Positions 5,658 to 64,000 of a stretch of 64,000 nt of DNA are shown here, one piece after another; position 1 is the stretch's first letter; each line of letters begins with the position of its first letter. Made by a program: the position numbers and the translations under genes. Source of the DNA: a bacterium (GTDB lineage Bacteria > Bacteroidota > Ignavibacteria > UBA10030); the NCBI GenBank assembly GCA_043803945.1, contig JAZDJN010000087.1:64001-128000 (forward strand). Direction: 5' to 3'. The notes beneath the pieces were generated by a model, which was given only the letters and a program-made list of their open reading frames with translations, was not told the DNA's origin and made no database searches.

Positions 5658-5663
5658 CAGTCA

Positions 5664-8243: not shown

Positions 8244-8255
8244 AGTTCATCTCCA

Positions 8256-13705: not shown

Positions 13706-13762
13706 TTGTTGATCCAGCAACTTTTTACTATACTGAGGCGTATTTAATGACCACGAGTCAGT
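13706..13762 (+). promoter_or_regulatory. Putative sigma70 promoter and TetR operator
   Basis: TTGTTG-N17-TATACT (13706-13734) followed by palindrome TGAC-CACGA-GTCA (13748-13760) just upstream of tetR. Confidence 0.5.
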
Positions 13763-13777
13763 AATTTTACAAGGGTA

Positions 13778-14458: not shown

Positions 14459-14539
14459 AAACACTCACTCTGGAATCAGACACTATACAAGGATTATCGA
14501 ACTCACGTGCAATCAGTACTCCATCATCAAGGACAATTT

Positions 14540-48532: not shown

Positions 48533-48805
48533 ACCGCTGATGTCGCAGATTATGGGATTGCACTGAGTGAAAGCTCTATAAAAATTAATTCGGTGAAATC
48601 ACTTAATCAGTGTAAATCAGCGGTAAAGATTCGTATCTTTAAAGGCGTTTGATGGAGTGAGATCTCTGAAGTTGCTGCAGTTTCACTTCTGTCGTATGGA
48701 TCACGGTCTATCGGGTTCCATACCACTGAAGCCGTCCTGCAATAAAACCCCAGAACACAATATTACTCCGTACTACTATCATTCACTTTAAGAAAGGTGA
48801 TCCGT

Positions 48806-50926
48806 ATGAAACATGTTGTCTCAAAGCTTTGGTTGGTTGTTGCGCTGAGCGCAATGATCTTCCTGATCGGCTGCTCGTCGCAACAGGCCGTAAAACCCGA
48901 AGTCGGCAAAGGGTTAGTCAACGTCAAAGCCGGTGAGTTCGATACCGGTAAGATGTGGACCTTCGATTTTCCGCCGATGGACTATTTTAAAAAGACCTAC
49001 AATTTCAATCCGACAAAAGAATGGTTTGAGAAAGCCCGGCTCTCCGCGCTGCGCTTGCCCGGCTGTACAGCCGCCTTTGTTTCGGAGGATGGCCTCGTCA
49101 TGACAAACCATCACTGCGCTCGCGGTGATCTCCAGGCGGCAAATAAAGAGGGTGAACAGTTGCACATCAACGGTTTCTATGCTCCGACGCTGGACGATGA
49201 GAGAAAGACAAGAAGTTATGTCGATCAGTTGATCGTCACTGATGACGTTACCATGGAAATTCAGAAGGCGTTCGACAGTGGTACCACCGAAGCGGAAAAA
49301 GCGAGCCTCCGCGGCCAGAAAATGACTGAAATCATCAGCCGCTATACAATGAAGTATAAGGAATCCACCAAAGACTCCATGACATTCCAGATCGTTACTT
49401 TCTACAACGGGGGACGTTACTCTCTCTACGGGTACAAACGCTATACCGATATCCGCCTTGTCTTTGCCCCTGAAGAAGTGATGGCGTTCTTCGGCGGTGA
49501 TCCCGATAACTTTACCTACCCGCGTTATGACATGGACATCAGTATTTACCGTGTGTATGAAAACGGCAAACCGGTGAAGACTTCGAACTTCTTCAAGTTC
49601 AGCAAAGAGGGAGCAAAAGAAGGCGAAGCCGTGTTTGTGCTCGGCAATCCGGGAGGCACGGGTCGACTGCTTCCTATTTCACAGCTTGAAACCCTGCGCG
49701 ATATTACTTATCCTGCCAACATTAACTTTTTAGAAACTCAGGTCAACGCGTATACTCAGTACATTGAGAAGAACCCTGACAAGAAGTCGCAATACCTCAA
49801 CACTCTCTTCGGTATGGCGAATAGCAGGAAAGCGATCACCGGATATCTTACCGGATTGACCGACCCTGTATTCTGGGCAAAGAAACTCGACTTCGAAAAG
49901 AATTTCCGGAACACCGTCGTGAACAATCCAGGGCTCAAAGCAAAGTATGGCGACCCCTGGAGCCAGATGGCACTTTACGAAGCTGAGCTTCAATCGCTGC
50001 TTCCTGAAGCGAATGCATTAAATGTTTCACGCCGAAGCCAGTATTTCAGCCTGGCGATCAATGCGGTCGCTTATGCCGACTCAGTGAAAGCCGGAAAGAA
50101 TAAGCCGAAGCCGCGATACATGCGGATGTCGCCGATCGAAGTTGATAATATTGCAACCATCGACCTCCTCGCGTTCATGCAGAAGTCACTCGGAACCGAT
50201 TATCCTGCGCTGAAAGCATTGATGAAGAACCGGACTCCGGTTGAGGTAGTTGAGGACTTCGTAAAAAATTCTGCCGCTGCATCAAAAGAGAAATTTGAAA
50301 CGCTGGTGAACGGTTCGCCGGATGCCATCCTGGGCTCCACCGATCCTCTTGTTGCTTTTGTCGTGCAGACTCGTGGACGCCTTGCGCAGCTTCAATTCAA
50401 GATCGGAGATCTGCGGGCAAAACAAGCACCATTGATCCAACTGCTTGGCCGCGCGATGTACGATGTCAATGGCACAAAGATCCCGCCCGATGCTACCTTT
50501 ACTCTGCGAATGGCAGATGGTGTTGTAAAGGGATATGAGTACAATGGAACTATTGCTCCGCCCGTGACAACGTTCTACGGGTTGTATGACCGCTATTATT
50601 CGTTCAGCAAGAAAGATCCATGGGAATTGCCTCAGCGCTGGGTCAATACACCTGCAGATTTTAATCTGAGTACACCAATGAACTTTGTCTCCACCAACGA
50701 TATCATCGGCGGCAACTCGGGCAGTTCTGTTGTAAATAAGAACCTTGAAGTTGTCGGTTTGATCTTCGATGGGAACATCGAAAGCCTGCCGGGATATGTT
50801 ATTTTTGATGAAACGAAGAACCGCAGCGTCTCCGTGCATTCTGCCGGTATTCTTGAGGCACTGGAAAAGATGTACCGTGCCGACCGGATCGTCAAAGAAC
50901 TCCGTCAGGGAAAGATGGCTCAATAA
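48806..50926 (+). CDS. S46 family dipeptidyl peptidase (lipoprotein), paralog 2
   Basis: GKMWTF, TNHHC, PDATFTLR, DIIGGNSGS, LIFDGN. Confidence 0.95.
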   Translation: MKHVVSKLWLVVALSAMIFLIGCSSQQAVKPEVGKGLVNVKAGEFDTGKMWTFDFPPMDYFKKTYNFNPTKEWFEKARLSALRLPGCTAAFVSEDGLVMTNHHCARGDLQAANKEGEQLHINGFYAPTLDDERKTRSYVDQLIVTDDVTMEIQKAFDSGTTEAEKASLRGQKMTEIISRYTMKYKESTKDSMTFQIVTFYNGGRYSLYGYKRYTDIRLVFAPEEVMAFFGGDPDNFTYPRYDMDISIYRVYENGKPVKTSNFFKFSKEGAKEGEAVFVLGNPGGTGRLLPISQLETLRDITYPANINFLETQVNAYTQYIEKNPDKKSQYLNTLFGMANSRKAITGYLTGLTDPVFWAKKLDFEKNFRNTVVNNPGLKAKYGDPWSQMALYEAELQSLLPEANALNVSRRSQYFSLAINAVAYADSVKAGKNKPKPRYMRMSPIEVDNIATIDLLAFMQKSLGTDYPALKALMKNRTPVEVVEDFVKNSAAASKEKFETLVNGSPDAILGSTDPLVAFVVQTRGRLAQLQFKIGDLRAKQAPLIQLLGRAMYDVNGTKIPPDATFTLRMADGVVKGYEYNGTIAPPVTTFYGLYDRYYSFSKKDPWELPQRWVNTPADFNLSTPMNFVSTNDIIGGNSGSSVVNKNLEVVGLIFDGNIESLPGYVIFDETKNRSVSVHSAGILEALEKMYRADRIVKELRQGKMAQ

Positions 50927-50965
50927 CGACCACAGATTACACTGATTACACTGATTATGTAAAAG

Positions 50966-50999
50966 AAAGAGGGGCTCTAAAAAGCCCCTTTTTTCTTTT
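50966..50999 (+). terminator. Rho-independent terminator
   Basis: AAAGAGGGGCT-CTAAA-AGCCCCTTTTT plus T-tract. Confidence 0.8.
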
Positions 51000-51225
51000 C
51001 TGGGAGGGAGCTCCCGCCAATCCGCCAAAAAAGATGGAGGACGCAATAAGCGTAATAACAACCTGAGGTCGTCCAAAAAGAAAAAATACCAGGGCGTCAC
51101 GAACCACTTCGTGACGCAAAATGCGAAAAACATTCAGATTTAATGTGTCACGGTGTGGACCGTGACACCCTTGGCGTACTTTTTAGTCAGTCTCGGGATA
51201 GGTCTGCACCCGACCACCCTTTCAC

Positions 51226-51254
51226 TTGCTATTCAACCCCTCTTTTAATAATAT
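51226..51254 (+). promoter_or_regulatory. Putative sigma70 promoter of the sel operon
   Basis: TTGCTA-N17-TAATAT, 33 nt upstream of ATG 51288. Confidence 0.45.
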
Positions 51255-51287
51255 GGAACACCAAAACATTTACAATCTCACAGGCAT

Positions 51288-51446
51288 ATGAATACCTTGA
51301 AACGTTACTGGTACGAAAAGCCGATACAGATCACGCTGCTGATTCTCTTCATCGGCTCGATTGTTCACGGCATCATGGCCGGCGAACTCACGCTCGTACA
51401 AATTGAGAGCTCGACGCTCTGACTCGATTGTATCGGAATCGGGTGA
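51288..51446 (+). CDS. 52-aa membrane selenoprotein with UxxC motif (CD1871A-like CxxC family)
   Basis: MNTLKRYWYEKPIQITLLILFIGSIVHGIMAGELTLVQIESSTL-U(TGA 51420-51422)-LDCIGIG; SECIS-like hairpin follows; precedes the 4Fe-4S gene, selA and selB. Confidence 0.88.
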
Positions 51447-51452
51447 TTCCGA
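51433..51452 (+). promoter_or_regulatory. SECIS-like element
   Basis: TCGGAATC-GGGT-GATTCCGA, perfect 8-bp stem; G-first loop begins 19 nt after the UGA. Confidence 0.85.
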
Positions 51453-51458
51453 AAACAT

Positions 51459-52355
51459 ATGGAACAACAAGAAAAACGAAAATCCTACCGCATCCTTCGA
51501 ACCATCCGCTCAACGGTTGCATTCTCGCTCGGCGGAATCCTTGCTAATAGTTACTTCAAAGTCTTCTCCACAAAGCAAATCTATGACGGCCCATTAAAGC
51601 AGGCATGCGTTCCCGGATTGAATTGTCATGCGTGTCCAACAGCATACATGTCCTGCCCGATCGGGATTATTCAGGCCGGTGCGGCGCAAGGGTGGATTCC
51701 CTTTTCAGTGATCGGATATCTGGGAACGATCGGTATGATTTTCGGCCGCTCGGTGTGCGGGTGGCTGTGTCCCTTCGGATGGTTGCAGGATCAGATGTTT
51801 AAAATAAAAAGTAAGAAGGTTAAGATTCCGGCCTTCCTCAAAAATGGTAACTATGTTTCCCTGGTTGTTCTTGCCATCATTCTTCCTGCGTTGACAGAAG
51901 CGCATTGGTTTTCGCGTATCTGCCCATGGGGAACAATGATTGCAGGCATCCCATGGGTGATATGGAATCCGGTCAATCCGATGATGGCCATGCCGGTCAT
52001 TGAACCGGGAATGGTCGGATGGCTGTATGCGATGAAGATTGTGATTCTGATGTTCTTCCTCATCATGTTTGTTTTGACCAAGCGGCCATTCTGCCGAACG
52101 CTTTGCCCGCTCGGCGCCATCTATGCGCAGTTCAACCGTGTAAGTTATATGAGAATGCAGGTTGAGGGACGCTGTGTCGGTTGCGATCTTTGCGTTGAGG
52201 TTTGTCCCGTTGATATCAAAATTTCTGACGATCCAAATTCTCCCGATTGTATTCGCTGTCTTAAATGTACTGTTTGTAAAAACGTTCACGTTCGATGGGG
52301 GCTAGGCCATGACCCAAGACCCGAAGTCTGTGCTCCAGCAGCTTCCCAAAGTTGA
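51459..52355 (+). CDS. Membrane 4Fe-4S binding protein (NapH/MauN/YccM-like)
   Basis: CVPGLNCHACP, CPIG, CGWLCPFG, FCRTLCPLG, CVGCDLCVEVCP, CIRCLKC, several TMs. Confidence 0.92.
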   Translation: MEQQEKRKSYRILRTIRSTVAFSLGGILANSYFKVFSTKQIYDGPLKQACVPGLNCHACPTAYMSCPIGIIQAGAAQGWIPFSVIGYLGTIGMIFGRSVCGWLCPFGWLQDQMFKIKSKKVKIPAFLKNGNYVSLVVLAIILPALTEAHWFSRICPWGTMIAGIPWVIWNPVNPMMAMPVIEPGMVGWLYAMKIVILMFFLIMFVLTKRPFCRTLCPLGAIYAQFNRVSYMRMQVEGRCVGCDLCVEVCPVDIKISDDPNSPDCIRCLKCTVCKNVHVRWGLGHDPRPEVCAPAASQS

Positions 52356-53727
52356 TAAGCTGCTGGAAGATTCTCGAATTGCCACACTCTTAGAGCACCA
52401 TTCTCGATCAAGAGTGGTGGAGGAAATTCGGAGCTATCTCGATAGCCTCCGATCGGAAATCCTCTCTGCATCAAGGACAACGCTCCCTGAATACGATGCG
52501 TTAGTGGAGCGATTCGTCCGGGATGCAGAGAAGAAACTCCTTCCCGGTTTGCGGCGCAGCATCAACGGAGCCGGCATTATTTTACACACCGCACTTGGCC
52601 GCGCACCGCTTGCATCCGTTGCACAACAAGCGCTGATGATCGCCGTTGACCATTACTCCACGCTTGCGATCAATCTCGAAACGGGAAAGAGGGGCGATCG
52701 CAATGCGGCAGTGGAGAAACTGCTCAAGGCCATCACCGGAGCAGAAGCGGCAGTCGTTGTCAACAATAACGCCGCGGCAACACTGTTGATCCTCAACACG
52801 CTGGCAGAAGGGAAAGAGGTGATCGTCTCCCGCGGTGAACTGGTCGAAATCGGTGGATCGTTTCGCATTCCCGATGTCATGAAGCGGAGTGGAGCAAAAC
52901 TTGTAGAGGTGGGCACAACTAATCGCACGCACCTGAAGGATTACAAAAATGCGATTACTCCAGAGGCCGGCATCATACTTAAAGTACACCAGAGTAATTA
53001 TCGCATCATCGGATTCACCAGTCAGGTTGAAGTCGGCGACCTTGCATCGCTTGCACATCAGCATAATCTCAAGGTTGTCGACGATATCGGCAGCGGAGCT
53101 CTTGTAGACTTCAGCCGCTGGGGATTGCCGAAAGAACCTGTGGTGCAGGAATCTGTTGCCGCCGGTGCCGACGTTACATGTTTTAGCGGCGACAAGCTCC
53201 TGGGTGGCCCACAGTGCGGCATTATCGTAGGCAAAAAGGAGGTAATCGAAAAAATTAAGGGCAACCAATTGATGCGAGCACTGCGCTGCGATAAACTCAC
53301 GTTTGCCGTGCTCGAGGCAACATTGCTGCTCTTTCTCGATGAGGCCAAACTGCTGAAGCGTCATCCCGTCATGAAAATGCTTACGATGCCGCAGGAGGAA
53401 ATCAAACGACGCTGTACCCGCCTCAAGCAGAAACTTGCCAGAGTTATCGGTGAACAAGCGACGATGTCGGTTCAGCAGGATTCTTCCGAAGTCGGCAGCG
53501 GCTCGCTGGCCGCAATGAACTTACCGACGTGGGTACTCTCTCTTGAATTTCATACGCTCTCTGCCGATCTGCTGGCAAAAAAACTCCGGCAATGCACCAT
53601 TCCCATCATCGGCAGAATCAAAGAGAACAAATTTTTGCTCGATGGAAGAACGATTCGTGACGATGAGTTCGAGTTGATCATGCAATCATTTCGTGAACTG
53701 GCAACTACGCTGCTCCCCCATGCCTGA
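52309..53727 (+). CDS. selA: L-seryl-tRNA(Sec) selenium transferase
   Basis: [62 protein letters not shown]. Confidence 0.98.
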
Positions 53728-55618
53728 AGCAGGAAACCGACATATCGTTCTCGGCATGGCGGGCCACATTGACCACGGGAAAACAGCACTTGTCAAAGCA
53801 TTGACCGGCACCGACACCGACCGCTTGAAGGAAGAAAAGGAACGAGGGATGACAACCGACCTCGGCTTCGCGTTCTTCGGCGACACCATGACGATTATCG
53901 ATGTGCCGGGCCATGAGAAATTCGTCAAGACCATGGTTGCCGGCGTCAATACTGTGGATATCGCCATGCTCGTCATCGCTGCTGATGACGGTATTATGCC
54001 GCAAACACGCGAACATCTCGAGATCCTTCGCCTGTTGCAGATTTCAAAGGGGCTTGTCGTTCTCAATAAAATCGACATCGTTGAACAAGAGTGGCTCGAC
54101 CTCATCACCGCCGATATCAGGGCATTGCTGAAAGGGAGTTTTCTGGAACATGCCCCCCTTGTATCCGTCAGTGCGCTGACGGGAAAAGGGATACAGAACC
54201 TTAAACGCGAACTTAATACGCTCGCAGGTTCTATTCAGGCAAGGAGAGACAAGGGAATCTTTCGTCTTCCTATTGACCGCGTATTCACTATTAAAGGTTT
54301 CGGCACTATCGTGGCCGGGACAGTCATATCCGGCAGCGTTCACGTCGACGATTCGGTGGAACTTCTCCCGCAGGGAAAAACTCTGAGAGTGCGCGGATTA
54401 CAGATCCACGAGCAGAATGTGTCAGAGAGCCGGATCGGTTTTCGTACGGCAATCAATCTGATGGGAATAGAAAAAGAATCCATTGAGCGGGGCGACGTAA
54501 TCGCGGCACCCGGTTTTTTCAAACCGACGTACATGATCGACGTACAATTTTCCTATCTGGCAGGGGCATTGCACGCACTTGAAAACCGTACACGTGTGCG
54601 CGTCCATATCGGCACCAGTGAAGTTATTGCCCGCATTATCTTACTGGATCGGGAAGCCTTTGAACCGGGCGCAGAGGGATTTGTACAAATCCATTTTGAG
54701 CAGCCAATTGTCGCAGATGCCGGCGATCGATTTGTCGTCCGAAGTTACTCTCTGCTGCAGACCATTGGCGGCGGTTCCGTTCTGGACACTCATCCGGAAA
54801 AACATAAACGATTCAAGGAGGAGGTCCAACACCGGCTGCAAACCATTGCACAGGGCGATACGGAACAGCACATCCTTGAGCATCTCATCCGGCTTGACAA
54901 TGCACTCGTCGATGGCAGCACATTGTCGAAAAACGCAAGCATCCCAATTGACACCTGTCTTCTCCATCTGCAAACCCTGGTGGAAAAGCAACAGGCCATC
55001 CGGTTTGGAGCGGAACAGTGGTATGCCGTTGCCAACCTTTCGATGCTGCGGAACCGTGTCTCGGAGATCCTGAAAAAATTCCACCGTGAACAGTCATTAC
55101 GAACCGGCATGCTGGTTGGAGAATTGCATTCACGAATCAAACCTCCCATTGAAAAGAAATTGTTCGATGCCGTTTGCCGTGCACTGCAGGCGGAGGGTAT
55201 GGTGCAATTTATCGGTGACCGTATTGCGCTCGCGGAATTTTCTATTCAACTGACACCTGAACAGAAGGAACTGAGGAAGAGGATCGAAAAAGAATTTGCT
55301 AAAACACCGCTTATGCCCCCAAATCCGGATGATCTTCTCCCTGGCCTTGGCAAAGAGAGCCAGCACATTTTTCAACTGATGATCGACGAGGGAGAGCTTG
55401 TCCGTCTTGACGAGGGGATTGTGATGCATAGAGAAGGGATTGAGTACGCGAAGAAAGAGATTACCACTTTTCTGAGCCAGAAGGACGCAGCGGCATTGGG
55501 CGAGATCAGGCAGCATCTGGGCATCACCAGAAAATATGCTCTTCCCCTGTTGCTCCATCTTGATACTTTGGGTATTACTGAGCGTGATGGGGATGTCCGA
55601 CGGCTTAAACAACGATAA
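53720..55618 (+). CDS. selB: Selenocysteine-specific elongation factor
   Basis: [28 protein letters not shown]-terminal winged-helix TRKYALPLL. Confidence 0.98.
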
Positions 55619-55655
55619 CACTATGCTCTGCTCCAGGAAAGGACGATTCATCAAC

Positions 55656-56927
55656 GTGGATCAAACATATCAGGGTTTGTTAAAGGAGATCGGCGTTAAT
55701 CTTGAGTTGCACGATCAGCTCATCGAGTACAACAATCGCAATCACGAACGCACGCACCGTTCGGCTAAGAACCGTCCGAATGAAATGGCATACTTTGATG
55801 AATCGTTTCATGCTTCGCATGGCAGCCGTGTTGCCGAAATCTATGAATACCGGAAACGGGGGGGCAAGTCGATTGGAACATTTTGCATCTATGTGCCTGA
55901 TGAAATTGCACTCGCGGCAAATGTTCTGCCGATCCCGTTGTGCGGCGGAAGCCACTGGTCTGTCGATTATGCCGATAAGATGCTGCCGCGGGATATTTGT
56001 CCACTGATTCGCTCCACGTTTGGTATGGCATTCAGCGGTACCTGCCCTTACAAGAAACTTAAGGATGGCGTGGTTGGAGAAACAACATGCGATGCGAAGA
56101 AGAAAACCTGGGACCTGATGAAGTTTGAGGTTATGGAAGTTCCTCAGAAAAAAAATGAGCGGGACAGGGAGTTATGGCGGGCAGAGGTTCGTGACTTCAC
56201 AACCTATGTCGAAAATCTTTCCGGTGTGAAAGTGACGCCGGAGCGCCTGAAAGAAACCATCGCTCTTGTGAACAGCAAACGGACAGCACTCCAGCGTGTC
56301 AATGAATACCGGAAGCTCCCCCATCCCCCGATTTCAGGACTCGATGCACTGCTTGTCTCACAGGTCGCATTGAATCAGGATATCAAGACGTTTGTCGATG
56401 GCTGCGAACGGCTGCTGGAAGAACTTCACGAACGGGTTGAGAAGGGAATATCGGCATTCTCGAACAGCGGGCCGCGAATTCTGCTTGCGGGGACACCTTC
56501 TCCCATGGGCAATGCAAAGGTACACTATGCCATTGAATCTTCCGGCATGCGAATTGTTGCCGATGAATCGTGCACCGGTATGCGGTACTTCAGAAACATC
56601 GTCGATGATACGCATGACAATCTCGACGACATGCTGGACGCAGTTGCCGACCGCTATTTCAATATCGATTGTTACTGTTTCTCGCCCAATAAAGAGCGGG
56701 TGGACAATATTCAGACGCTGGTTGAGGAGTACAGCGTCGACGGAGTGGTACAAAATATTCTTTCCTTCTGCCAGGGGTATAATGTTGAGGCAAAGGTGAT
56801 TGAAACGGCATTGGTGCAGAGGAAGATTCCATCGATTAAGATTGTCACCGACTATTCGTATGAAGACGTGGAGCAGTTAAGAGTGCGGCTTGAGTCTTTC
56901 CGCGAGATGATGGAGAGTAATTGTTGA
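55656..56927 (+). CDS. Double-cubane-cluster (DCCP)-type reductase, 2-hydroxyacyl-CoA dehydratase superfamily
   Basis: GTFCIYVPDE, LCGG, CPLIRS, CPY, ETTCDAKKK, DESCTG, IDCYCFSPN, FC; GTG start with AAGGA upstream. Confidence 0.85.
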   Translation: MDQTYQGLLKEIGVNLELHDQLIEYNNRNHERTHRSAKNRPNEMAYFDESFHASHGSRVAEIYEYRKRGGKSIGTFCIYVPDEIALAANVLPIPLCGGSHWSVDYADKMLPRDICPLIRSTFGMAFSGTCPYKKLKDGVVGETTCDAKKKTWDLMKFEVMEVPQKKNERDRELWRAEVRDFTTYVENLSGVKVTPERLKETIALVNSKRTALQRVNEYRKLPHPPISGLDALLVSQVALNQDIKTFVDGCERLLEELHERVEKGISAFSNSGPRILLAGTPSPMGNAKVHYAIESSGMRIVADESCTGMRYFRNIVDDTHDNLDDMLDAVADRYFNIDCYCFSPNKERVDNIQTLVEEYSVDGVVQNILSFCQGYNVEAKVIETALVQRKIPSIKIVTDYSYEDVEQLRVRLESFREMMESNC

Positions 56928-57218
56928 AACCATCCGGAGGTGACAATAAAGTTGAAGTGTCACGGTATGCCCGCCCCGTGTTTTTTTCGGGGGACCGTGA
57001 CACCCATAGGATAGCCAACACTCGGCAACACACTGGCAAAACGTGTCTCACCCGCGTAAGCGGGTGTCCAGTGCCTTACCTTCTATTTTGAACTTTCAAG
57101 AAAGGCTCTGGATTCCCCCGATACAAAGCATCGGGGCAGGCCGCGTTCGCGGGAATGACAATCTTTCTTTTCCCTCCTTATGAAGGGGAGGGATTTATTC
57201 ATCAACATAAACACTCTC

Positions 57219-58316
57219 ATGACACAAGAACAAGACAACACAGCGTCGAAGCCAAGTGGGCGGCAAATTCGCCTGATGAGCTTCAGCGCATGCGCCGGTT
57301 GAGCCGGCAAAGTGAGCCCGGCCAGGTTGGCCGGAATCCTTGACAAATTGCCGCGCGTCAAGTCGCCCGATCTTCTGGTCGACATGGAAACCATGGACGA
57401 CGCCGGTGTGCTACGCCTTTCTTCAGAACTGGCATTGGTGCAAACGCTCGATTTCTTCGAACCGATTGTCCATGATCCGAAAAGCTTCGGACGCATCGTG
57501 GCTGCCAACAGCCTTTCCGACATCTGGGCAATGGGGGGCACTGCATTGACAGCAATGAATATTCTTGCTTACCCCTCGAAGAAAATTTCCATCGATGTGA
57601 TCGAGGAACTGCTCATCGGCGCGTGCGAAAAACTGCAGGAGGCGAATGTCATTCTTGTCGGCGGACACACCATGGAGATGCAGGAGATTTTCTATGGCAT
57701 GAGCGTTACCGGCACAATCCATCCCGATCGTGTGCTCACCAATGCAAAAGCCCGGATTGGCGACAAGCTTCTTCTGACAAAACCGCTCGGTGTTGCCGTC
57801 TATTGCGAAGCGCTTCGCAACGACGGCCTGACGGGCGAACAATACAACGAAGTGATCGGAAGCATGGAGCGATTAAACCTCTATGCCTCACAGGTGCTGC
57901 AACGGTTCGATATCAGCGCTATGACCGATGTCACCGGCTTTGGATTACTCGGCCATGCACTGCCGATCGCCCGCAATGCAGGCGTTACGCTGGCAATAGC
58001 TGTCCATGATATACCTCATCTCTCCTCATTCTTTGATCTCATGCAGCAGTTTCTTCCAACACAAACATGGAAGAGCCATGAATATGTCAAGCCCTTTACA
58101 TGGAGAGATGAGCATATTTCAACAGATCAATATGCACTGCTGGGAGAAGCTCAGACATCAGGAGGATTGCTCGCGGCAATCAATCCCAAGCAAGCAAACG
58201 AAGCGCTGAGCGCATTACACGCTGCGGGAGATACAGCGGCAACGGTGATTGGAGAAGTAGTTGGACTTGTTAATACTTCAGAGGGACATCCGGTTTTTCT
58301 TCAGATTCTCCCCTAA
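57219..58316 (+). CDS. selD: Selenophosphate synthetase, selenocysteine-containing
   Basis: IRLMSFSACAG-U(TGA 57300-57302)-AGKV in frame with DDAGV, QTLDFF, AANSLSDIWAMGG, GGHT, TDVTGFGLLGH, QTSGGLL. Confidence 0.96.
57318..57334 (+). promoter_or_regulatory. SECIS-like element of selD
   Basis: CCGGCCA-GGT-TGGCCGG, perfect 7-bp stem; loop G 23 nt after the UGA. Confidence 0.85.
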
Positions 58317-58483
58317 GCATTGCCCTGTCACTTACCTTCCTCCTTTCCTGTCGCCATTTTTCCTGACTGATCTCCCGGCATTGAATTAACATAGACAACC
58401 AAGTTCGTATTCATAGTGCGGTCTTAACGTAACGGGAGTACAGTTACTTTCTCTCATCATCACACCTATTAAAGGAGATCACC

Positions 58484-59290
58484 TTGAAACAACTCAAGAA
58501 CATTACACTGAAGAATGTACAGGAGGTGTACAACGGAGCAGAAGGAGATCTTTGGGAGCTCGTTATGGGAGAACAAATCCATATCGGCGGATTCAGTTCT
58601 TCGATGGCGCTGGCAGAGAAAGCCGGAATTGGCGGCGGAATGCAGGGAGTCGATCTCTGCTGCTGCAATGGCGCAGGGATGCGTTTCCTTGTACGCTTCC
58701 GCGGTGTCGAAAAAATGACGGGTGTGGACGCAACCGAAACTGTTGTTAATCGGGGACGGATGCGCTGTGAGAAAGAGGGATTCACGGAGAAAATTCAATT
58801 CAATCTGGCTGACGTGACCGCCAGCGGTTTACCAAACGAATCGGCAGATTTTATCTGGGGTGAAGATGCCTGGTGCTATGTTGAAGACAAACCGAAATTG
58901 ATTTCCGAGGCTGCGCGTATTGTTAAACGAGGCGGCACTCTCGCGTTCACCGACTGGGTGGAAGGCCCGACCGGATTGACCGATGACGAAGCAAATCGAT
59001 TCCTGACGTTCATGAAGTTCCCAACACTTCCTTCCATTCAGGAATATGCCGATCTCTTGAAGAGTAATGGCTGCCAGGTGCTTGTTGCCGAAGATACCGG
59101 CCAATTTGCTCCCCATGTTGATCTGTATCTGGATATGCTCAACAAACAATTAACCTATGATGCTCTCAAAATCATTGGGTTCAATGTGAATCTGATGCAG
59201 GCGATGGGAGGAGAGATGATCTTTATGCAGGGATTAGCCCGTGCCGGGAAGATTGCCCAGGGCAGGTTTATCGCGAAAAAGAACTTTTGA
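58484..59290 (+). CDS. Class I SAM-dependent methyltransferase
   Basis: AAGGAG plus TTG start; HIGG, motif I VDLCCCNGAG, TGVDA, ADFIWGEDAWCY, KRGGTLAFTDW. Confidence 0.9.
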   Translation: MKQLKNITLKNVQEVYNGAEGDLWELVMGEQIHIGGFSSSMALAEKAGIGGGMQGVDLCCCNGAGMRFLVRFRGVEKMTGVDATETVVNRGRMRCEKEGFTEKIQFNLADVTASGLPNESADFIWGEDAWCYVEDKPKLISEAARIVKRGGTLAFTDWVEGPTGLTDDEANRFLTFMKFPTLPSIQEYADLLKSNGCQVLVAEDTGQFAPHVDLYLDMLNKQLTYDALKIIGFNVNLMQAMGGEMIFMQGLARAGKIAQGRFIAKKNF

Positions 59291-59297
59291 CCATCCT

Positions 59298-60275
59298 ATG
59301 AAAAAAAATCTCTACACAAGCCCTTTTATTCCTGCCGAATGGATTGCCGCACATGGCTTGCAGCCCTGCCGTGTCATCCCGGATTTCCAGGAGAACGAGG
59401 AGGAGTGTAATCCATCGCAAGGGATCTGCCGCCATATGTGGCAGTCAGTGCAGCAGGTCAACCGCGACACCGAAGCTGCCGGTTCAATTTTCACGACGAT
59501 CTGCGATCAGATGCGCCGCGCTCCGGAATGCCTCGATGCTTCCGCCTCCTCCCGTTCCTTTCTCTTCCACGTTCCAAAAACATGGCAATCATCTTCGTCA
59601 TTTGAATGGTACGTTGCCGAACTTCGGCGATTGGGTTCCTATCTGATCCAGCGTGGCGGCATCGAACCATCCGCAGATTACTTAAAGAACATTCTGCAGT
59701 CCTATGATAAAAACCGCAGGATACTTTTGTCTGTCAGGCCATACATGCCTGCGACCGCATACGCCGAACTTCTCTATCGTTTTTACACAACAGGAATAGT
59801 CGATTCTCCTCCGATCGACCGAGCTTATCGAGAGTTCGGAATTCCACTTGCACTGATCGGCGGACCCTTGGCACGAATCAACTGGTCGCTCATCAATGAA
59901 GTGGAAACTGCGGGTGGCACCATTGTTCTCGATGGCACTGAAAACGGTGAACGGACATTTCCCGCGCCGTTCGATCAAGCTCGATTATCGGAAAATCCAT
60001 TCCTCGAAATGGCGCATGCGTACTTCGATTTCATTCCCGATATTTTCCGCAGACCTAATGATGGCTTCTTCCACTGGCTTCACCGCGCTCTGTCAGCCCG
60101 GTCCATTCGCGGGGTCATTCTCATTCGAAACGTTTGGTGCGACCTCTGGCATGCAGAAGTGCAAAGGATCCGTGAGAGTATCCGGGAGCCTCTTCTTGAT
60201 CTCGACGTCGATGGCGGAGATGCATTCGCAAGAAACCAGACAAGAATTCAAGCCTTTCTTGAGTCCCTCCAATGA
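59298..60275 (+). CDS. 2-hydroxyacyl-CoA dehydratase family (HgdA/B-like) subunit
   Basis: PFIPAEWIAAHG, IC, TTICDQMRR, RGVI...WCDLW, TRIQAFLE. Confidence 0.85.
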   Translation: MKKNLYTSPFIPAEWIAAHGLQPCRVIPDFQENEEECNPSQGICRHMWQSVQQVNRDTEAAGSIFTTICDQMRRAPECLDASASSRSFLFHVPKTWQSSSSFEWYVAELRRLGSYLIQRGGIEPSADYLKNILQSYDKNRRILLSVRPYMPATAYAELLYRFYTTGIVDSPPIDRAYREFGIPLALIGGPLARINWSLINEVETAGGTIVLDGTENGERTFPAPFDQARLSENPFLEMAHAYFDFIPDIFRRPNDGFFHWLHRALSARSIRGVILIRNVWCDLWHAEVQRIRESIREPLLDLDVDGGDAFARNQTRIQAFLESLQ

Positions 60276-61684
60276 CCGAGCCTCCACAACAACTTACACT
60301 CCATCAGTGGGATTCCCGGTATGTTGAACTGACAGCCTTCGGGTGGTCTCCACGCTGGTACGACGGCCCGCTTTGCCGCCATGCCGAGGGGGGCGATACA
60401 CGCCTTCTCCGCCTCAGGTTCGATAATTCCACGGAAGCATTAACGCTCTGGAATTTTTTACTCACCGAGGAAGACCGGCTGAAACATTTTCGTGAACAGG
60501 GTGCTATTCTGATTGGGACGATGAAAGACCTTGGCACTGTACCGGTGATGGCATTTGCACTTCCGAATGTCGTTGCCTTCTACCCTGATGGTGCCTGGTG
60601 GATACCATGTGTTATGGAGATGTCAACGGGGCTTTTGGAGATTGCCGACTCTCTGGGAATCGATGAATCGTTCTGCCCCGTCCGTGCCATGCTCGGTGCG
60701 TTTGTTACACAGAAGCATTTTCCAATTCCGGATCAGCTCATTTGCAGTGTTGGCGCAACGTGTGATGATTTTTCTGCCATCGCACAGCGTCTGGAAGCCA
60801 TGGGGCATCCCATTATGTGGTGGGAAATTCCACATCGCAATCCGCCGCAAGAAGGAGAAGAAGCCGTTACACTTCCCGGAGGATTTCAAGCATCGCCGCC
60901 ACAATTGTCCTTCGTTAAACACGAGTTAGAAAGAGTCAAAGGTATTTTGGAATCCGCATCGGGATCTGTCCTTGACGATGAAATGCTCTCAGCCGGAATT
61001 CAACGGGCAAATACCGTACGGCGCTGTTTGAAAGAGTTGCGACATCTCACGTTTACTGCGCCGCTCTGTCCTATGCCCGCTCTCGAGATGCTCATCGCCG
61101 AGATGCTCGCCATTCATTTCTGTTCCGACAGAGATGAATCCCTGTTCGTTCTTGAGGGATTGTTGAACCGGGTCCGCCAGCGGATTGCTGATCGACAGGG
61201 ATATTTTGGCGAAGATGCTGCACGGATCTTTTGGGTTAATCCAGTTGCAGACCTTCGGGCGATGAACATTCTTGAACGGTGCGGGGGTCGCCTCTGCGGT
61301 ACGGAATATCTCTTCAGCCACGCATTGGATGAGATTCCAACCGGCATTGCCCCTCTTGAGGCATTAGCACAGATGGCTCTTGCGGATCCAATGGTTGGTT
61401 CAACGGCTGATCGAGCCGATCGCATTATCCGCGACATACAACTGTATGGCGCCGAGGGGCTCATCATTTCGCGGATTCCCGGTGCGAGCCATTGCGCCCT
61501 TGAAGGAAAGATTATTGCCCGGCAGGTTCAGGAAGCACTCAATCTTCCCGTTTTGGAAATAGAGGTGCCACCATTATCCGATGCATTTCGCCTGGCACTC
61601 AATACTCGTATTTCCGCACTGGTCGAAGTGATTCACGGCCGGAGGGCAAAGGAACTTTCGCTCCAATCTCGTTCTCTATCATGA
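60272..61684 (+). CDS. 2-hydroxyacyl-CoA dehydratase family (HgdA/B-like) subunit
   Basis: FCPVRA, ATCDD, GASHCALEG, LPVLEIE, TRISALVE; ATGA overlap with the previous gene. Confidence 0.85.
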   Translation: MTEPPQQLTLHQWDSRYVELTAFGWSPRWYDGPLCRHAEGGDTRLLRLRFDNSTEALTLWNFLLTEEDRLKHFREQGAILIGTMKDLGTVPVMAFALPNVVAFYPDGAWWIPCVMEMSTGLLEIADSLGIDESFCPVRAMLGAFVTQKHFPIPDQLICSVGATCDDFSAIAQRLEAMGHPIMWWEIPHRNPPQEGEEAVTLPGGFQASPPQLSFVKHELERVKGILESASGSVLDDEMLSAGIQRANTVRRCLKELRHLTFTAPLCPMPALEMLIAEMLAIHFCSDRDESLFVLEGLLNRVRQRIADRQGYFGEDAARIFWVNPVADLRAMNILERCGGRLCGTEYLFSHALDEIPTGIAPLEALAQMALADPMVGSTADRADRIIRDIQLYGAEGLIISRIPGASHCALEGKIIARQVQEALNLPVLEIEVPPLSDAFRLALNTRISALVEVIHGRRAKELSLQSRSLS

Positions 61685-61790: not shown

Positions 61791-64000
61791 CTACTCCGGT
61801 TGACGCAACTTCTTATAGTGTCCATAGAGCTCGTTCATGCAGTCGGGACAAATCCCGTGGCTGAATTCTGCTTCTGAGTGTTCATGAATATATGCTTCCA
61901 ACTGGCTCCAGTACCCTTTATCGTCGCGGATCTTTTTACACTTTGCACAGATCGGAATCAAGCCATGTAAGGTCTTAATTTTTGCTATCGCTTCATTGAC
62001 CCTGGTTTGTAATTCTTCCTCCCTCCTTTTTAAAACCATAACACGAGCCCTGTAGATTCCCCCAACTGTTGCAAGAACAACCACTACGCAAAGGAGAGAG
62101 AACCACGTTGTCTGATAGAAATAGGGTTCCAATTCAATCTGAAGGGAAGCACCTTGTTCATTCCAATAGCCGTCAGAATTCCGTGCCTGAACCCTGAATG
62201 TGTACTCGCCGGGAGGAATATTGGTAAAGTACGCTGCACGCCGCATACCGACCTCCTTCCATTCTTTATTAAATCCTTCCAATTTAAATTTGAAGAGAAT
62301 TTTTTCCGAGACGATAAAGCTCAGGCCGGTATAATGAATTTCCAGATAACTGTAACCCGGTAAGACAAGAATTTTCTGTGTCAGGGGTATCCGCTGATTG
62401 TCGATGCTGATGGATTCGATCTTCACCGGCGGCGGCACAGAATTCAGCGGAATGTCGTCGGGGTTTAGAATCGCTACACCGTTGGTTGTCGGGAACCACA
62501 TCTTTCCATCACTCGCCCTAATCCCTGCCGGTTGAGAATTCCCGTTGCATTCACTGCTTCGCATTCCATCCGCTGTGCCATAGCCAATGCAGATAATCTC
62601 GGGTGTATTTTTATCGGCAAACTCATTTAACGATTTACGTGAGATGCGGAAAACACCTTTGTTTGAACTCATCCACAGATGCCGATCGTCATCTTCAAGG
62701 ATTTGATAGATCGTGTCATCAAACAATCCATCTTGTGATGTATAGCGGAAAATCTTGTCCCCCTTGAGCCGGAATAATCCATCACCAAAGGTGCCAAGCC
62801 AGACTGTCCGGTCGTCGTCTTCGTAGATGGCAAACACGTCGGAGGGGATGCCGTTTCTTGCATCATAGAGTGTGGTTTTACCTTTCTGCCATCGAGCTAA
62901 TCCTGAGGAGTACCCTGCCCACATAGTATTATCCCGCCCACGATACACCACTCGAATCCTTGTCGCAGGGATTCCCTCCTTTTCCAGGTTCTCAAATCTC
63001 CCGTTGCGCAAACGATCGATTCCACCTTCAGCGTACGCCACCCATAAATTCCCCTCAAAATCCTCCGTCAATCCGCGTACATATTCATAGGTAAGGCTAT
63101 TCTGAGTGGTGTAGTTCTTAAATGTCCGGCCGTTAAATTGTGATAGTCCTTTTCTCATACCAATCCAGAGCTTGCCGCGTGAATCGACATAGACTGAACG
63201 GATCTGATTGTTGAGCAATCCATCCTGTGTTGTATAGTTGGTGATCACACCATTTTTCCAGTGTGACAGCCCCGTCTCAGTTCCAATCCAAAAAGATCCT
63301 CCGCGACCTTCGAAAATCGACCAAACCTGGGGACCGGCAAGACCTTCTGGAGTTGAGTACGATTCAAATTTCCCACGCCATAATTTATTGACGCCATGAT
63401 AATACGTACCGGCCCAGATATTCCCTTCATGATCTTCCATCAGCGAAAGAATATGAACCGCTGAGAGCCCTTCTCGTGAAGATAAATTTTCCAGAGATCC
63501 ATCCATGAACCGATATAATCCGTTCTTCTCTGTACCGATCCACACACTTCCGGTTCTATCTGTATAGAGTGAATGAATTAACGATGATGATATCTCCGAA
63601 AGTTTTTCACACTGTCGATTTTTAGAGTTCCTGAGAAAGTATAATCCTTCAGCCGTTCCAACCCAGAGTGTTTGGTCTTTGCCCAGACAGAGAGCATAAA
63701 TGATAATGGATCGGGGAAAACCCTGAATGGGAACATCGTGTAGTTCCCCCCCTCTCAAGACCTTAAGGCCTACATTCGTTCCAACCCATAGTGTTCCTTG
63801 TTGATCCTCAGTCAGAGCAGTGACAGTCAGATCCTTGAGGTTTTGATGTGCAGGACTGACTGCTACCATTCCATTGCGAACAGTAAGGAGCCCCACTCTG
63901 GAACCTATCAAGAGGTTTCCGTTATGATCGAGAAAGAGAGTGTTACATATGAATACACCAATGGATGGATCAGCGGGAACCGGTGTAAACACTCCATGAA
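61791..64000 (-). CDS. Beta-propeller/Y_Y_Y membrane sensor with short Cys-rich cytoplasmic tail; 5' end outside the window
   Basis: Repeated ED..G.LW.GT..GL blades, YFTNIPPGEYTFRVQARNSDG, TM, then IPICAKCKKIRDDKGYW...FSHGICPDC. Confidence 0.9.
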   Translation of the reverse strand, partial: HGVFTPVPADPSIGVFICNTLFLDHNGNLLIGSRVGLLTVRNGMVAVSPAHQNLKDLTVTALTEDQQGTLWVGTNVGLKVLRGGELHDVPIQGFPRSIIIYALCLGKDQTLWVGTAEGLYFLRNSKNRQCEKLSEISSSLIHSLYTDRTGSVWIGTEKNGLYRFMDGSLENLSSREGLSAVHILSLMEDHEGNIWAGTYYHGVNKLWRGKFESYSTPEGLAGPQVWSIFEGRGGSFWIGTETGLSHWKNGVITNYTTQDGLLNNQIRSVYVDSRGKLWIGMRKGLSQFNGRTFKNYTTQNSLTYEYVRGLTEDFEGNLWVAYAEGGIDRLRNGRFENLEKEGIPATRIRVVYRGRDNTMWAGYSSGLARWQKGKTTLYDARNGIPSDVFAIYEDDDRTVWLGTFGDGLFRLKGDKIFRYTSQDGLFDDTIYQILEDDDRHLWMSSNKGVFRISRKSLNEFADKNTPEIICIGYGTADGMRSSECNGNSQPAGIRASDGKMWFPTTNGVAILNPDDIPLNSVPPPVKIESISIDNQRIPLTQKILVLPGYSYLEIHYTGLSFIVSEKILFKFKLEGFNKEWKEVGMRRAAYFTNIPPGEYTFRVQARNSDGYWNEQGASLQIELEPYFYQTTWFSLLCVVVVLATVGGIYRARVMVLKRREEELQTRVNEAIAKIKTLHGLIPICAKCKKIRDDKGYWSQLEAYIHEHSEAEFSHGICPDCMNELYGHYKKLRQPE

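Follow-up and report, generated by a model that had tools for sequence, protein, structure and literature searches.

The window, the 64,000-nucleotide stretch of DNA analysed here, carries a run of nine genes whose ORF calls, Pfam matches and NCBIfam matches agree with the first-pass annotation: all lie on the forward strand, in the order UxxC microprotein, NapH-like membrane polyferredoxin, selA, selB, DCCP, selD, SAM-dependent methyltransferase and two PF06050 subunits. Neighbouring genes overlap or abut, as had been described, except at two gaps, one of 291 bp between DCCP and selD and one of 167 bp between selD and the methyltransferase gene. Upstream of the operon is a dispersed, REP/MITE-like repeat (51064–51200), about 130 bp of which match many contigs at 80–97% identity. 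We considered its palindrome, GTGTCACGG..CCGTGACAC at 51145–51168, as an island-specific operator and rejected this role, because it is dispersed through the genome, with 21 sites against 0 for a control pattern, and the repeat matches so many contigs.

The sel genes comprise selA (52309–53727; TIGR00474, 593.8 bits; PF03841, 505 bits), selB, the Sec-specific elongation factor (53693–55618; TIGR00475, 377.3 bits; SelB winged-helix domains by Pfam), and selD, the selenophosphate synthetase (57219–58316; TIGR00476, 308 bits). The last is a Sec form, with a TGA at 57300–57302 giving U28 in SACAG-U-AGK; U also occupies this position in 15 selD orthologs of the metagenome loci described below. SECIS-like hairpins lie downstream of both Sec codons of the cluster, those of the microprotein and selD. 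The selD hairpin, on the forward strand at 57318–57334, has a 7-bp stem (CCGGCCA/UGGCCGG) and a GGU loop, with a z-score of −2.8 and 1 of 200 shuffles folding equally well. The cluster had been called self-contained, but within its stated coordinates it is not fully so: the tRNA-Sec is located on contig C87 at 129548–129642, 1.5 kb beyond the window end and 3.9 kb downstream of the cluster. Apart from the selenoproteins of the cluster, the genome encodes at least three with good support and a further four candidates, and its exported selenoproteins are three thioredoxin-fold proteins with the TGA inside the Pfam domain span. The Sec machinery therefore does not serve only a membrane relay, as first proposed.

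The microprotein gene (51288–51446) translates to 52 residues forming a single helix. An in-frame TGA at 51420–51422 places Sec in the C-terminal sequence STL-U-LD-C-IGIG, with the Cys codon at 51429–51431. Its hairpin (51433–51452, forward strand), an 8-bp stem with a GGGU loop, starts 13 nt past the U of the UGA and has a folding energy of −13.9 kcal/mol (z −2.25; 7 of 200 shuffles fold equally well). A second TGA, at 51444–51446 inside this hairpin, is the real stop, since the L016 and L019 orthologs have TAA at that position and no hairpin was found 3′ of it (z 0.04). Orthologs with a TGA at the same position as the Sec codon, upstream of a NapH-like gene, occur in seven loci and in G258, a genome from the same taxonomic order as the window's. 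The C-terminus L-U-L-x-C-I-G-I-G is invariant across eight sequences. A profile search returned 83 matches, 16 of them cut at the Sec position and the others ending C-L-x-C-I-G-I-G. By its sequence, the microprotein belongs to the CD1871A-type CxxC family (NF040920) as the form that carries Sec; for this family a literature search under ‘CD1871A’ found no paper. The shared features are a length of about 50 residues, one hydrophobic helix and the C-terminal motif; the differences are Sec in place of the first Cys, an HMM score of 18.6 bits, under the cut-off of 32, and a position directly upstream of the NapH-like gene and selA/selB.

The NapH-like protein (51459–52355; Fer4_5, 59 bits by Pfam) shares with the NapH, MauN, NosR and CcoG polyferredoxins the Fer4_5 domain, two CX3CP motifs and a C-terminal 2×[4Fe-4S] domain built on two 4-Cys ferredoxin motifs. 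It scores 52–55 bits against NapH equivalog cut-offs of 213–234 (54.6 bits on TIGR02163 NapH/MauN, under 213), and differs from those proteins in two ways: an additional Cys-rich loop, itself invariant, follows the first helix (C50, C56, C59 and C66), and the partner gene encodes a Sec microprotein, where theirs are nap, nos or cco genes. All 17 shared Cys residues are invariant across 13 sequences. By the positive-inside rule, our sole guide to topology for this protein and for the microprotein, the Cys-rich loop would face the periplasm. Given the invariant Cys residues and microprotein C-terminus, a membrane selenol-thiol/Fe-S relay, as suggested in the first-pass annotation, seems a reasonable reading of the pair.

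The DCCP gene (55623–56927; ORF open from 55536, likely start 55623) scores 415 bits on NF040772, over the cut-off of 350. Its product is a strong homolog of the DCCP of Carboxydothermus hydrogenoformans (DCCP/DCCP-R, CHY_0487/0488; PDB 6ENO and 7YYL; E ~1e-108), with 412 residues aligned and the Cys ligands in register. The alignment begins at residue 7 of the C. hydrogenoformans protein, so the window protein still has the extended N-terminus of the long ‘small-molecule’ class; this extension has been tied to narrow channels and small-molecule substrates (Jeoung and Dobbek; PMC7317905). In the available text of two papers, the in vitro substrates of DCCP are acetylene, hydrazine and azide, none a selenium compound (PMC9351452, PMC7317905). 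Unlike its C. hydrogenoformans counterpart, the window gene has no adjacent reductase gene and is set between selB and selD, and its orthologs include forms with Sec at a conserved Cys. We compared Cys columns over 81 sequences. The window protein is a Cys form with the 7-Cys motif and a conserved TCPY Cys (Cys141 counted from 55623), and in 9 of 80 orthologous loci an in-frame TGA falls exactly at this TCPY Cys, which is conserved in the other 72 sequences, the window included. The site is a non-ligand Cys outside the 7-Cys motif. A perfect 6-bp hairpin lies 20 nt downstream of the TGA in 9 of 9 Sec-type genes, against 7 of 71 Cys forms, and the Sec types fall in at least three places on a quick DCCP tree.

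An activase (DCCP-R) gene lies between DCCP and selD in L015, L016, L019, L022, L029 and G258. We found no activase gene or remnant in the window's cluster or in the spacer, even at E up to 10. Instead the 291-bp spacer (56928–57218) contains short dispersed repeats, which match other contigs, and a palindrome at 56957–57003. The activase gene has been lost from this position in the window and its place taken by repeat DNA. The sole stand-alone activase candidate lies among unrelated genes on another contig, C58, and is 49% identical to island-type activases.

To place the cluster in a wider context, we fetched 80 metagenome loci around DCCP orthologs, which dereplicated at 95% nucleotide identity into 70 groups. 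At least one sel gene occurs in 20 of the 80 loci (19 of the 70 groups). The remaining 51 groups have none in the fetched stretch. For 27 of the 70 groups 11 kb or more was fetched; 15 of these show no sel gene and 12 have selD. Adjacency of DCCP and sel genes is frequent, not obligatory. Of the 19 loci with selD, 15 have it co-oriented with DCCP or the activase gene and no more than about 1.5 kb away, and sel-linked loci spread over at least four separate clades of the quick tree. The core order microprotein–NapH-like–selA–selB–DCCP–activase–selD recurs in L015, L016, L019, L022 and L029 and in G258, at 54–75% protein identity. Genes for a porin-like protein and a TlpA-like UxxC lipoprotein follow selD in L015, L016, L022 and G258; they sit beside Sec-type DCCP and the microprotein/NapH-like pair in L040 and L047, and in the window's genome the porin-like and TlpA-like genes are found about 21 kb downstream. 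In a deep clade (L080–L094), selD directly abuts DCCP–activase while selA and selB are kilobases off or not seen in the fetched loci. DCCP is a Cys form there, so a role as Sec client is not enough to account for its adjacency to selD.

Within a 401-genome sample of the phylum, selD occurs in 66 genomes, its TGA type in G000 and G258 only, and DCCP over the family cut-off likewise in these two only; none of 40 relatives has selA over cut-off. The linkage of sel genes, UxxC microprotein, NapH-like gene and DCCP is thus conserved, shared by several unrelated microbes and patchy in its distribution, so the portable module first suggested holds, and the sel–DCCP linkage is not a chance juxtaposition. 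That neighbourhood is conserved elsewhere; the methyltransferase and two PF06050 genes, which had been counted with it, lie outside the conserved core. No characterised pathway is known to have this composition, as had been noted, but an association of DCCP with selenium already appears in two preprints. Haft & Gwadz, whose 2022 preprint shares with our data the genomic link of NF040772 DCCPs to SelD, place 955 of 970 high-scoring DCCPs in SelD-containing assemblies (10.1101/2022.07.06.499078), and Kountz & Balskus (2023) describe DCCP/DCCP-R and selABD inside type 1 mlp corrinoid clusters, which are connected with the use of methyl selenide (PMC10418091). The window is not an mlp cluster, since Mlp, corrinoid and Ram genes are all absent from it. 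In the portions of the two preprints available to us, a fixed order of the operon, the pairing of a Sec microprotein with a NapH-like protein and Sec in DCCP are undescribed.

The three genes after selD encode a class I SAM-dependent methyltransferase (58484–59290; Methyltransf_11, 55 bits), a BzdN/HgdB-like subunit (59241–60275, likely start 59298; PF06050, 100.9 bits) and a BzdO/HgdA-like subunit (60272–61684; PF06050, 119.5 bits). No NCBIfam model scores the methyltransferase over cut-off, the best being the DVU_1556 family (46.6 of 155 bits); all 7 sequences compared retain its Cys59 and Cys131. The PF06050 pair, initially described as HgdA/B-like, resembles BzdN/BzdO more closely: the best solved relative of the first subunit is BzdN (8s02_B, E 1.1e-4), and the nearest Atlas cluster of the second is the ‘benzoyl-CoA reductase, bzd-type, O subunit family’ (score 0.97, TM 0.96). 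With BzdNO, HadBC and HgdAB the pair shares the PF06050 fold and, in the manner of subunits that bind [4Fe-4S], a set of three conserved Cys in each protein (Cys63, 88 and 300 in 3 of 3 BzdN-like sequences; Cys135, 164 and 408 in 5 of 5 BzdO-like). It scores far below the BzdN/BzdO equivalog cut-offs (27 against 454 bits) and, unlike those systems, is coupled to a SAM methyltransferase and has no adjacent activase or CoA-pathway genes.

These three genes form an accessory module not needed by the core: G258 lacks it, with no BzdO-like homolog found there, and none of the three genes was seen in the five syntenic contigs. They could even be unrelated to the island, serving for example the reduction of aromatic or other CoA esters or of small molecules, and inserted after selD by chance. 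Such an origin would agree with their absence from the core copies, with BzdO-like occurring in 0 of the 400 other phylum-sample genomes (E ≤ 1e-20), with the nearest Atlas clusters of the methyltransferase and BzdO-like proteins being commonest in Planctomycetota, and with the repeats that have colonised the spacers flanking selD. We nevertheless find it doubtful, as the same three genes lie directly beside DCCP in L039 (67%, 39% and 62% identity), more distant versions occur in the selD–DCCP–activase clusters of L087 and L090 and near Sec-type DCCP in L027, and the methyltransferase alone abuts DCCP/activase in L078, L079, L081 and L085, a recurrence that spans two deep DCCP clades. In all, 7 of the 80 loci have a methyltransferase homolog next to DCCP/activase and four (L039, L027, L087 and L090) a BzdO-like homolog near DCCP, counts that apply to the vicinity of DCCP, on which the sampling was anchored, and not to frequencies away from it. 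In L085, L087 and L090 the methyltransferase family and DCCP–activase are accompanied by corrinoid protein, UroD-type methyltransferase and RACo genes, with selD too in the latter two. Genes of this kind have been linked to methyl-selenide metabolism (Kountz & Balskus; PMC10418091), and by this analogy the organo-selenium substrate first suggested appears plausible.

We propose that the window carries one copy of a selenium-utilisation island that is conserved and has spread horizontally, a reading that, taken jointly with the mechanism that follows, we consider evenly balanced between right and wrong. The products of selA, selB, selC and selD would make and insert Sec. DCCP, energised by its ATP-driven activase, may reduce a small selenium compound, such as elemental or thiol-bound Se or a methylated selenide, and hand the reduced Se to SelD, possibly via the conserved Cys/Sec near the cluster. 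At the membrane, electrons from cytoplasmic Fe-S clusters could pass through the outward Cys loop of the NapH-like protein to the C-terminal UxxC of the microprotein, and this relay would serve UxxC selenoproteins that are exported, the TlpA-like protein among them. The methyltransferase and BzdN/O-like pair, added after selD in the window's copy, may widen the substrate range to include methylated or organic Se (or S) compounds. Weighing against this reading are the lack of an activase gene next to DCCP in the window, the many DCCP groups with no sel gene in the fetched stretch and the in vitro substrates of DCCP, which are not selenium compounds.

The same gene content might instead reflect a Sec-trait cassette travelling with its own clients (the microprotein, SelD, an ancestrally Sec-containing DCCP and the TlpA-like protein), since selenoprotein genes that move to a new host are of no use there unless the Sec machinery moves too; the DCCP substrate would then be unrelated to selenium, for instance a small molecule of anaerobic energy metabolism or detoxification. 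[quoted passage not shown] The L080–L094 clade, with its Cys-form DCCP, abutting selD and distant or unseen selA/selB, points to SelD specifically, as does the genome-level association, which is with SelD itself (955 of 970; 10.1101/2022.07.06.499078), and we regard the cassette as unlikely. That SelD provides selenide to replace the bridging sulfide of the [8Fe-9S] double cubane in this DCCP clade, a formal possibility listed by Haft & Gwadz themselves (10.1101/2022.07.06.499078) and compatible with the tight adjacency of selD to DCCP/activase and the near-complete genome co-occurrence in the same source, is very improbable, as the island has no conserved candidate selenium-insertion maturase, sulfide is the bridge described for the solved C. 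hydrogenoformans DCCP, made in E. coli (PMC7317905), and the idea offers no explanation for selA/selB and the genes of the microprotein and NapH-like protein, all of them conserved.

Returning to the selenium-utilisation island, our analysis adds to the first-pass annotation the Sec form of the CD1871A CxxC family, the TGA codons in DCCP orthologs and the lost activase gene. An island that joins sel genes, a selenium microprotein and an ATP-driven Fe-S reductase hints at a reductase that acts on selenium.

Nine co-oriented genes on the forward strand (51288–61684) make up the island in the window, positions 64001–128000 of contig C87 of the 5.5-Mb source genome, an arrangement proposed in the first-pass annotation and borne out by ORF, Pfam and NCBIfam results. 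The first gene (51288–51446) encodes a 52-residue membrane microprotein whose codon 45 is TGA and whose C-terminus reads STL-U-LD-C-IGIG, where U is selenocysteine (Sec). A NapH/MauN-like membrane polyferredoxin follows (51459–52355), with a Fer4_5 domain, two CX3CP motifs and two four-cysteine motifs. Next come selA (594 bits, TIGR00474) and selB (377 bits, TIGR00475), both over cut-off, and a double-cubane cluster protein (DCCP), which scores 415 bits against NF040772 (cut-off 350) and matches the solved DCCP of C. hydrogenoformans (6ENO/7YYL) at E ~1e-108. The remaining genes are selD, over cut-off in its equivalog model and with Sec at residue 28, a class I SAM-dependent methyltransferase, and two PF06050 proteins. 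The last two had been called HgdA/B-like, a name we abandon, as their nearest relatives are BzdN and a 'BzdO-type' cluster.

The gene for tRNA-Sec lies at C87:129548–129642, 3.9 kb past the last island gene and 1.5 kb past the window end; its score is 62.9 bits against a gathering score of 47, and ARAGORN identifies it as tRNA-SeC with anticodon tca. Two opposite-strand genes stand between it and the cluster, one of the Y_Y_Y/Reg_prop type and one that matches no Pfam family. With selA, selB, selD and tRNA-Sec all present, the bacterial Sec insertion set is complete. The island is not fully self-contained: selA, selB and selD fall within the proposed span, but selC, the tRNA-Sec gene, lies outside it and no activase gene is included. 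Hairpins with G/U-containing loops occur 3′ of both Sec codons, in the microprotein and in selD, and homologs back both positions: the microprotein has Cys-form homologs, and selD orthologs carry U. Two Reg_prop/Y_Y_Y propeller genes flank tRNA-Sec (window 61791–63992 (−); 792–3389 (−) and 5396–8497 (+) in L013, a piece of the source genome), between the island and the Sec-rich region downstream. One of them is a histidine kinase; the first, of which the window ORF 61791–63992 is the 3′ part, has a Cys-rich tail in place of a kinase domain.

The association of DCCP with sel genes recurs elsewhere. With an alignment of 40 close DCCP homologs as query, we retrieved 80 metagenome loci (L-numbers below) with DCCP orthologs of 50–75% identity and placed the window proteins on them by tblastn; a contig search with the single DCCP protein gave one distant locus, L014. 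At least one sel gene was found in 20 of the 80 loci (selD in 19, selB in 13, selA in 12); dereplication at 95% nucleotide identity leaves 70 groups, 19 of them with a sel gene. Of the 27 groups for which 11 kb or more was fetched, selD occurred in 12, and no sel gene was seen in 15. The order microprotein, NapH-like, selA, selB, DCCP, activase (DCCP-R, the ATP-driven DCCP reductase), selD was found in L015, L016, L019, L022 and L029, and the short contigs L018 and L020 are consistent with it. G258, a reference genome from a different family of the same taxonomic order, has all seven genes in this arrangement, at 54–65% identity. In 15 of the 19 selD-bearing loci a same-strand selD lies within ~1.5 kb of DCCP or activase, and in a quick DCCP tree (SH-aLRT support; short rows L068, L075 and L076 left out) at least four clades contain sel-linked DCCPs. 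For the core, chance juxtaposition is thereby refuted.

In its own genome the window DCCP (C87:119824–120912) scores 415.7 bits against NF040772. Its cysteines 117, 136, 155, 185, 346, 379 and 412 (counted from 55536) are in register with those of 7YYL/6ENO; this motif, comprising six cluster ligands and a cysteine near the opening, is kept in 79–81 of 81 sequences. By score and motif, the protein belongs to the NF040772 family, and it is predicted to share that family's traits, an [8Fe-9S] cluster and ATP-dependent reduction of small molecules. Nine of the 80 loci have a single TGA in the DCCP frame, exactly at the cysteine of a TCPY motif that lies outside the seven and is kept in the other 72 sequences, including the window protein, and also in the C. 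hydrogenoformans protein. All nine TGA-form loci carry a perfect 6-bp stem, UUUCGC/GCGAAA, with the loop nGUnG, 20 nt after the UGA; full pairing at the same place occurs in 7 of 71 Cys-form DCCPs, and the nine Sec forms are interrelated and so are not independent samples. Sec-form DCCPs occupy at least three places on the quick tree. In the available text of two reviews of prokaryotic selenoproteins, from 2022 and 2026, the terms 'cubane' and 'dehydratase' are absent, as are 'NapH' and '4Fe-4S' from that of 2026 and 'benzoyl' from that of 2022. The Sec-form DCCP and the Sec-form CD1871A-type microprotein (see below) appear to be two unlisted selenoprotein families.

A small ORF ending E-x-x-x-L-U-L-x-C-I-G-I-G, with the TGA at a constant position, precedes the NapH-like gene in seven loci and G258. 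A homolog search with the microprotein alone gave two matches, both truncated 44-residue forms. A profile built from eight microprotein sequences and searched against 1.84 billion representatives (E ≤ 0.001) matched 83 proteins. Sixteen of these end exactly at profile position 44 and are therefore truncated at the Sec codon, an example of how short or Sec-interrupted genes are cut short in protein databases. The other 67 extend to the profile's C-terminus; each of the 18 we read has a C/U-x-x-C tail, with Cys first in 16 (mostly C-L-x-C-I-G-I-G) and W deposited at the TGA in two. The microprotein scores 18.6 bits (E 0.0012) against NF040920 (CD1871A family CXXC), under the 32-bit cut-off, and the C-terminal CxxC-type motif of that family is present as U-L-D-C-I-G-I-G. 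The CD1871A name for the profile matches derives solely from this weak HMM match; our literature search found no paper on the family.

The NapH-like partner scores under cut-off in the NapH/MauN models (TIGR02163, 54.6 vs 213 bits; NF007013, 52.5 vs 234 bits), while having their motif set of two CX3CP and two four-cysteine ferredoxin motifs. The corresponding residues, C100-x3-C104-P, C212-x3-C216-P, C239/242/245/249 and C264/267/270/273, are invariant in 12–13 of 13 sequences, and all 17 shared cysteines are invariant among the 13; the invariant set includes four cysteines in the loop that follows helix 1 and one in the outward loop after that. By the positive-inside rule, the UxxC tail of the microprotein and this cysteine loop would be periplasmic, and the CX3CP motifs and ferredoxin domain cytoplasmic. 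Neither napA/napG nor other known NapH partners were found among the window ORFs of 46–64 kb. A complex prediction of the NapH-like protein with the microprotein as translated under table 11 (44 residues, no UxxC tail) scored 0.27 against a mark of 0.32. Fusion of the two proteins by read-through of the second, in-frame TGA was rejected: no hairpin follows that TGA, and the orthologs have TAA there.

Elsewhere, in five loci, the gene that precedes a more distant NapH-like gene encodes a different small membrane protein, ending C-P-T-U-(K/R/L). Given this second kind of Sec-tailed protein, members of this NapH-like group seem generally to have a small Sec-tailed partner. The CxxU-tailed proteins are at L053 ~17084–17329 (−), L065 11509–11772 (−), L067, L070 and L084 9228–9599 (+); the NapH-like gene (32–36% identity) is directly downstream, with selB, selD and selA alongside.

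The first-pass annotation had the Sec machinery serving a membrane selenol-thiol/Fe-S relay. We scanned the source genome for selenoproteins by coding potential and hairpin, then Pfam, with at least 30 open codons on either side of the TGA, a design that misses Sec near either protein end, the microprotein and selD included. Three thioredoxin-fold proteins had a Pfam domain across the TGA: a TlpA-like lipoprotein (C87:147935–148825, FFEHT-U-LEC), an AhpC/TSA protein (C87:155008–155514, WKSK-U-REC) and a thioredoxin-TPR protein on contig C91 (SPT-U-GFC). Four candidates are less certain: two paralogous BNR/Sortilin-like proteins (EGGG-U-GNSG), a membrane protein and an FG-GAP protein. The paralogs, exported and of 678 and 685 residues, lie at 12816–14849 and 16841–18895 of L096 (C87:143001–163000); they share the TGA context LALEGGG-U-GNSGLF, with coding potential on either side, and may be a new selenoprotein type. 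The candidate membrane selenoprotein (7477–8964 of L097, C87:163001–178000) has 496 residues, matches no Pfam family and carries CSGGG-U-G close to its N-terminus; the candidate FG-GAP repeat selenoprotein (1845–2867 of L098, C85:22001–27000) has 341 residues and EGG-U-CIGF. Most selenoproteins of this genome have signal-like N-termini, and C87:115–172 kb is rich in Sec genes. The machinery thus serves many proteins in this genome, not the relay alone.

A porin-like gene lies 5′ of the TlpA-like gene in the source genome. The pair follows selD in L016, L022 and G258 (the porin alone in L015, at a contig end) and lies between Sec-DCCP and the microprotein/NapH-like genes in L040 and L047. Every TlpA-like ortholog read through has H-T-U-x-x-C (L040 7597–8376, L047 5905–6726, the G258 region L101 and the source genome); in L040, L047 and G258 the porin-like gene before it has only a weak Porin_4 match. 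We conclude that the two make up a conserved pair of the island, one protein in the outer membrane and one in the periplasm.

The source genome's copy differs from these relatives in its activase and in the genes after selD. No activase (BcrAD_BadFG) match was found within the window, and no activase remnant in the 291-bp gap between DCCP and selD; an activase is present in 53 of the 80 orthologous DCCP loci. The only stand-alone BcrAD_BadFG gene of the genome, an orphan candidate at C58:8539–9282, is 49% identical to island-type activases and has restriction, phosphatase and amidohydrolase genes as neighbours. A 1038-residue open frame at C16:98677–100314 (−) has two BcrAD_BadFG domains, forming a fused activase that might act on either the BzdN/O-like pair or DCCP.

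Downstream of selD comes an accessory module, the methyltransferase and the BzdN/O-like PF06050 pair. It was not seen in the five syntenic contigs, and a BzdO-like homolog is absent from G258 and from all 400 other genomes of the phylum sample at E ≤ 1e-20. The module does turn up again with DCCP in other loci: L039 reads methyltransferase-BzdN-BzdO-DCCP (67%, 39%, 62% and 64% identity), L027 has the BzdN/O-like pair near a Sec-DCCP, and the methyltransferase stands beside DCCP/activase in L078, L079, L081 and L085. In L087 and L090, selD-DCCP-activase-methyltransferase is followed by a corrinoid protein, UroD-type methyltransferases, a BzdN/O-like pair and a second activase; RACo is in the corrinoid set of L087, and selA and selB come after the cluster in L090. 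The corrinoid set is of the type that Kountz and Balskus tie to methyl-selenide use; some of their clusters, in the available part of the paper, contain DCCP, DCCP-R and selABD (PMC10418091). In the window, tblastn with the L087/L090 proteins found nothing meaningful of a type 1 mlp cluster (best E 0.46), and distant homologs of the corrinoid-cluster proteins are on other contigs of the genome. In Table 1 of Lin et al. 2015, a Slackia HgdB-like subunit is next to selA/selB and an activase near selD, a placement on which the available text makes no comment.

The pair resembles BzdNO and 2-hydroxyacyl-CoA dehydratases at the superfamily level (PF06050) only: the small subunit scores 27.4 against a cut-off of 453.8 for the BzdN equivalog TIGR03190, and the large subunit has no BzdO model match. 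Each subunit has three conserved cysteines, candidate ligands of a [4Fe-4S] cluster, among 3 and 5 sequences only. Identification of the methyltransferase as ArsM was rejected (PRK11873, 35.2 vs 263 bits; selenoprotein ArsM variants, 22–35 vs 510–575 bits), as was the DVU_1556 family, with a score far under cut-off. [quoted passage not shown] Because locus sampling was anchored on DCCP, insertion of the module by chance stays a serious possibility. The single module proposed at first survives in part: its core linkage is not chance, but the methyltransferase and BzdN/O-like genes are not part of the conserved core.

Across 401 evenly sampled genomes of the phylum, selD occurs in 66; its TGA-type, lower-scoring form, like a DCCP over cut-off, occurs only in the source genome and G258. 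None of 40 relatives from the same family or order has selA over cut-off. The island is thus patchy and its selD unlike the phylum's usual type, which fits horizontal spread.

The palindrome GTGTCACGG(N)CCGTGACAC belongs to dispersed short repeats, found at window 51064–51200 and 56957–57003 and on many other contigs of the genome, with a 6-nt spacer in the short form and a 29-nt spacer with an inner hairpin in the long form. The exact pattern occurs at 21 sites genome-wide, and ~130-bp units at 80–97% identity on more than 20 contigs; the ~130 bp 5′ of the microprotein and pieces of the DCCP–selD gap likewise recur on many contigs. The palindromes, which lie 5′ of both cluster halves, are therefore not island-specific regulatory sites, and a role as a specific operator was rejected. 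Promoter and terminator scan counts were not above shuffles (12 vs 9.5 and 13 vs 11.3). Directly upstream of the island are tandem paralogous genes for S46 (dipeptidyl-peptidase 7-like) peptidases (45460–47595 and 48797–50926), separated from it by a strong terminator-like hairpin at 50965–50994.

To our knowledge, the supply of reduced selenium to SelD in cells is unsettled. In the likeliest reading, DCCP with an activase would reduce a small selenium species and so supply SelD; the NapH-like protein and microprotein would pass electrons to exported UxxC selenoproteins or to extracytoplasmic selenium species; and the methyltransferase and BzdN/O-like pair would act on methylated or organic selenium or sulfur compounds. 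A more far-reaching reading, put forward tentatively and rated as rather unlikely, is this: DCCP and its ATP-driven reductase would be the missing selenium-specific reductase/delivery enzyme of anaerobes, reducing refractory selenium (elemental, thiol-bound or methylated) at the double cubane, with the conserved Cys/Sec carrying the product to the Cys/Sec loop of SelD. In this reading, selenium would be captured and pre-reduced outside the cytoplasm by a relay across the envelope, made up of the porin-like protein, TlpA-like UxxC selenoprotein, UxxC microprotein and NapH-like polyferredoxin.

The main alternative is that the island is Sec machinery travelling with its client selenoproteins, with an unrelated substrate for DCCP; the Cys-type DCCPs that also abut selD speak against it. 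Another alternative is a selenium-bridged DCCP cofactor, a possibility raised in the available text of Haft and Gwadz (10.1101/2022.07.06.499078).

The available parts of earlier work give the physiological substrate of DCCP as unknown (PMC7317905, PMC9351452). The link between DCCP and selenium is already known, having been noted in two preprints (10.1101/2022.07.06.499078; PMC10418091, in the portions available); three features appear to be new, namely the fixed operon, the pairing of the Sec form of a CxxC microprotein with a NapH-like protein, and a DCCP that contains Sec. With its fixed gene order across lineages, selD abutting DCCP-activase in several clades and Sec replacing a conserved DCCP cysteine, the island links the question of the DCCP substrate to that of SelD supply and makes DCCP function directly testable by simple enzyme assays. 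Were a selenium-delivering role for DCCP true, the protein would gain a physiological function and the in vivo source of selenide for SelD would be explained.
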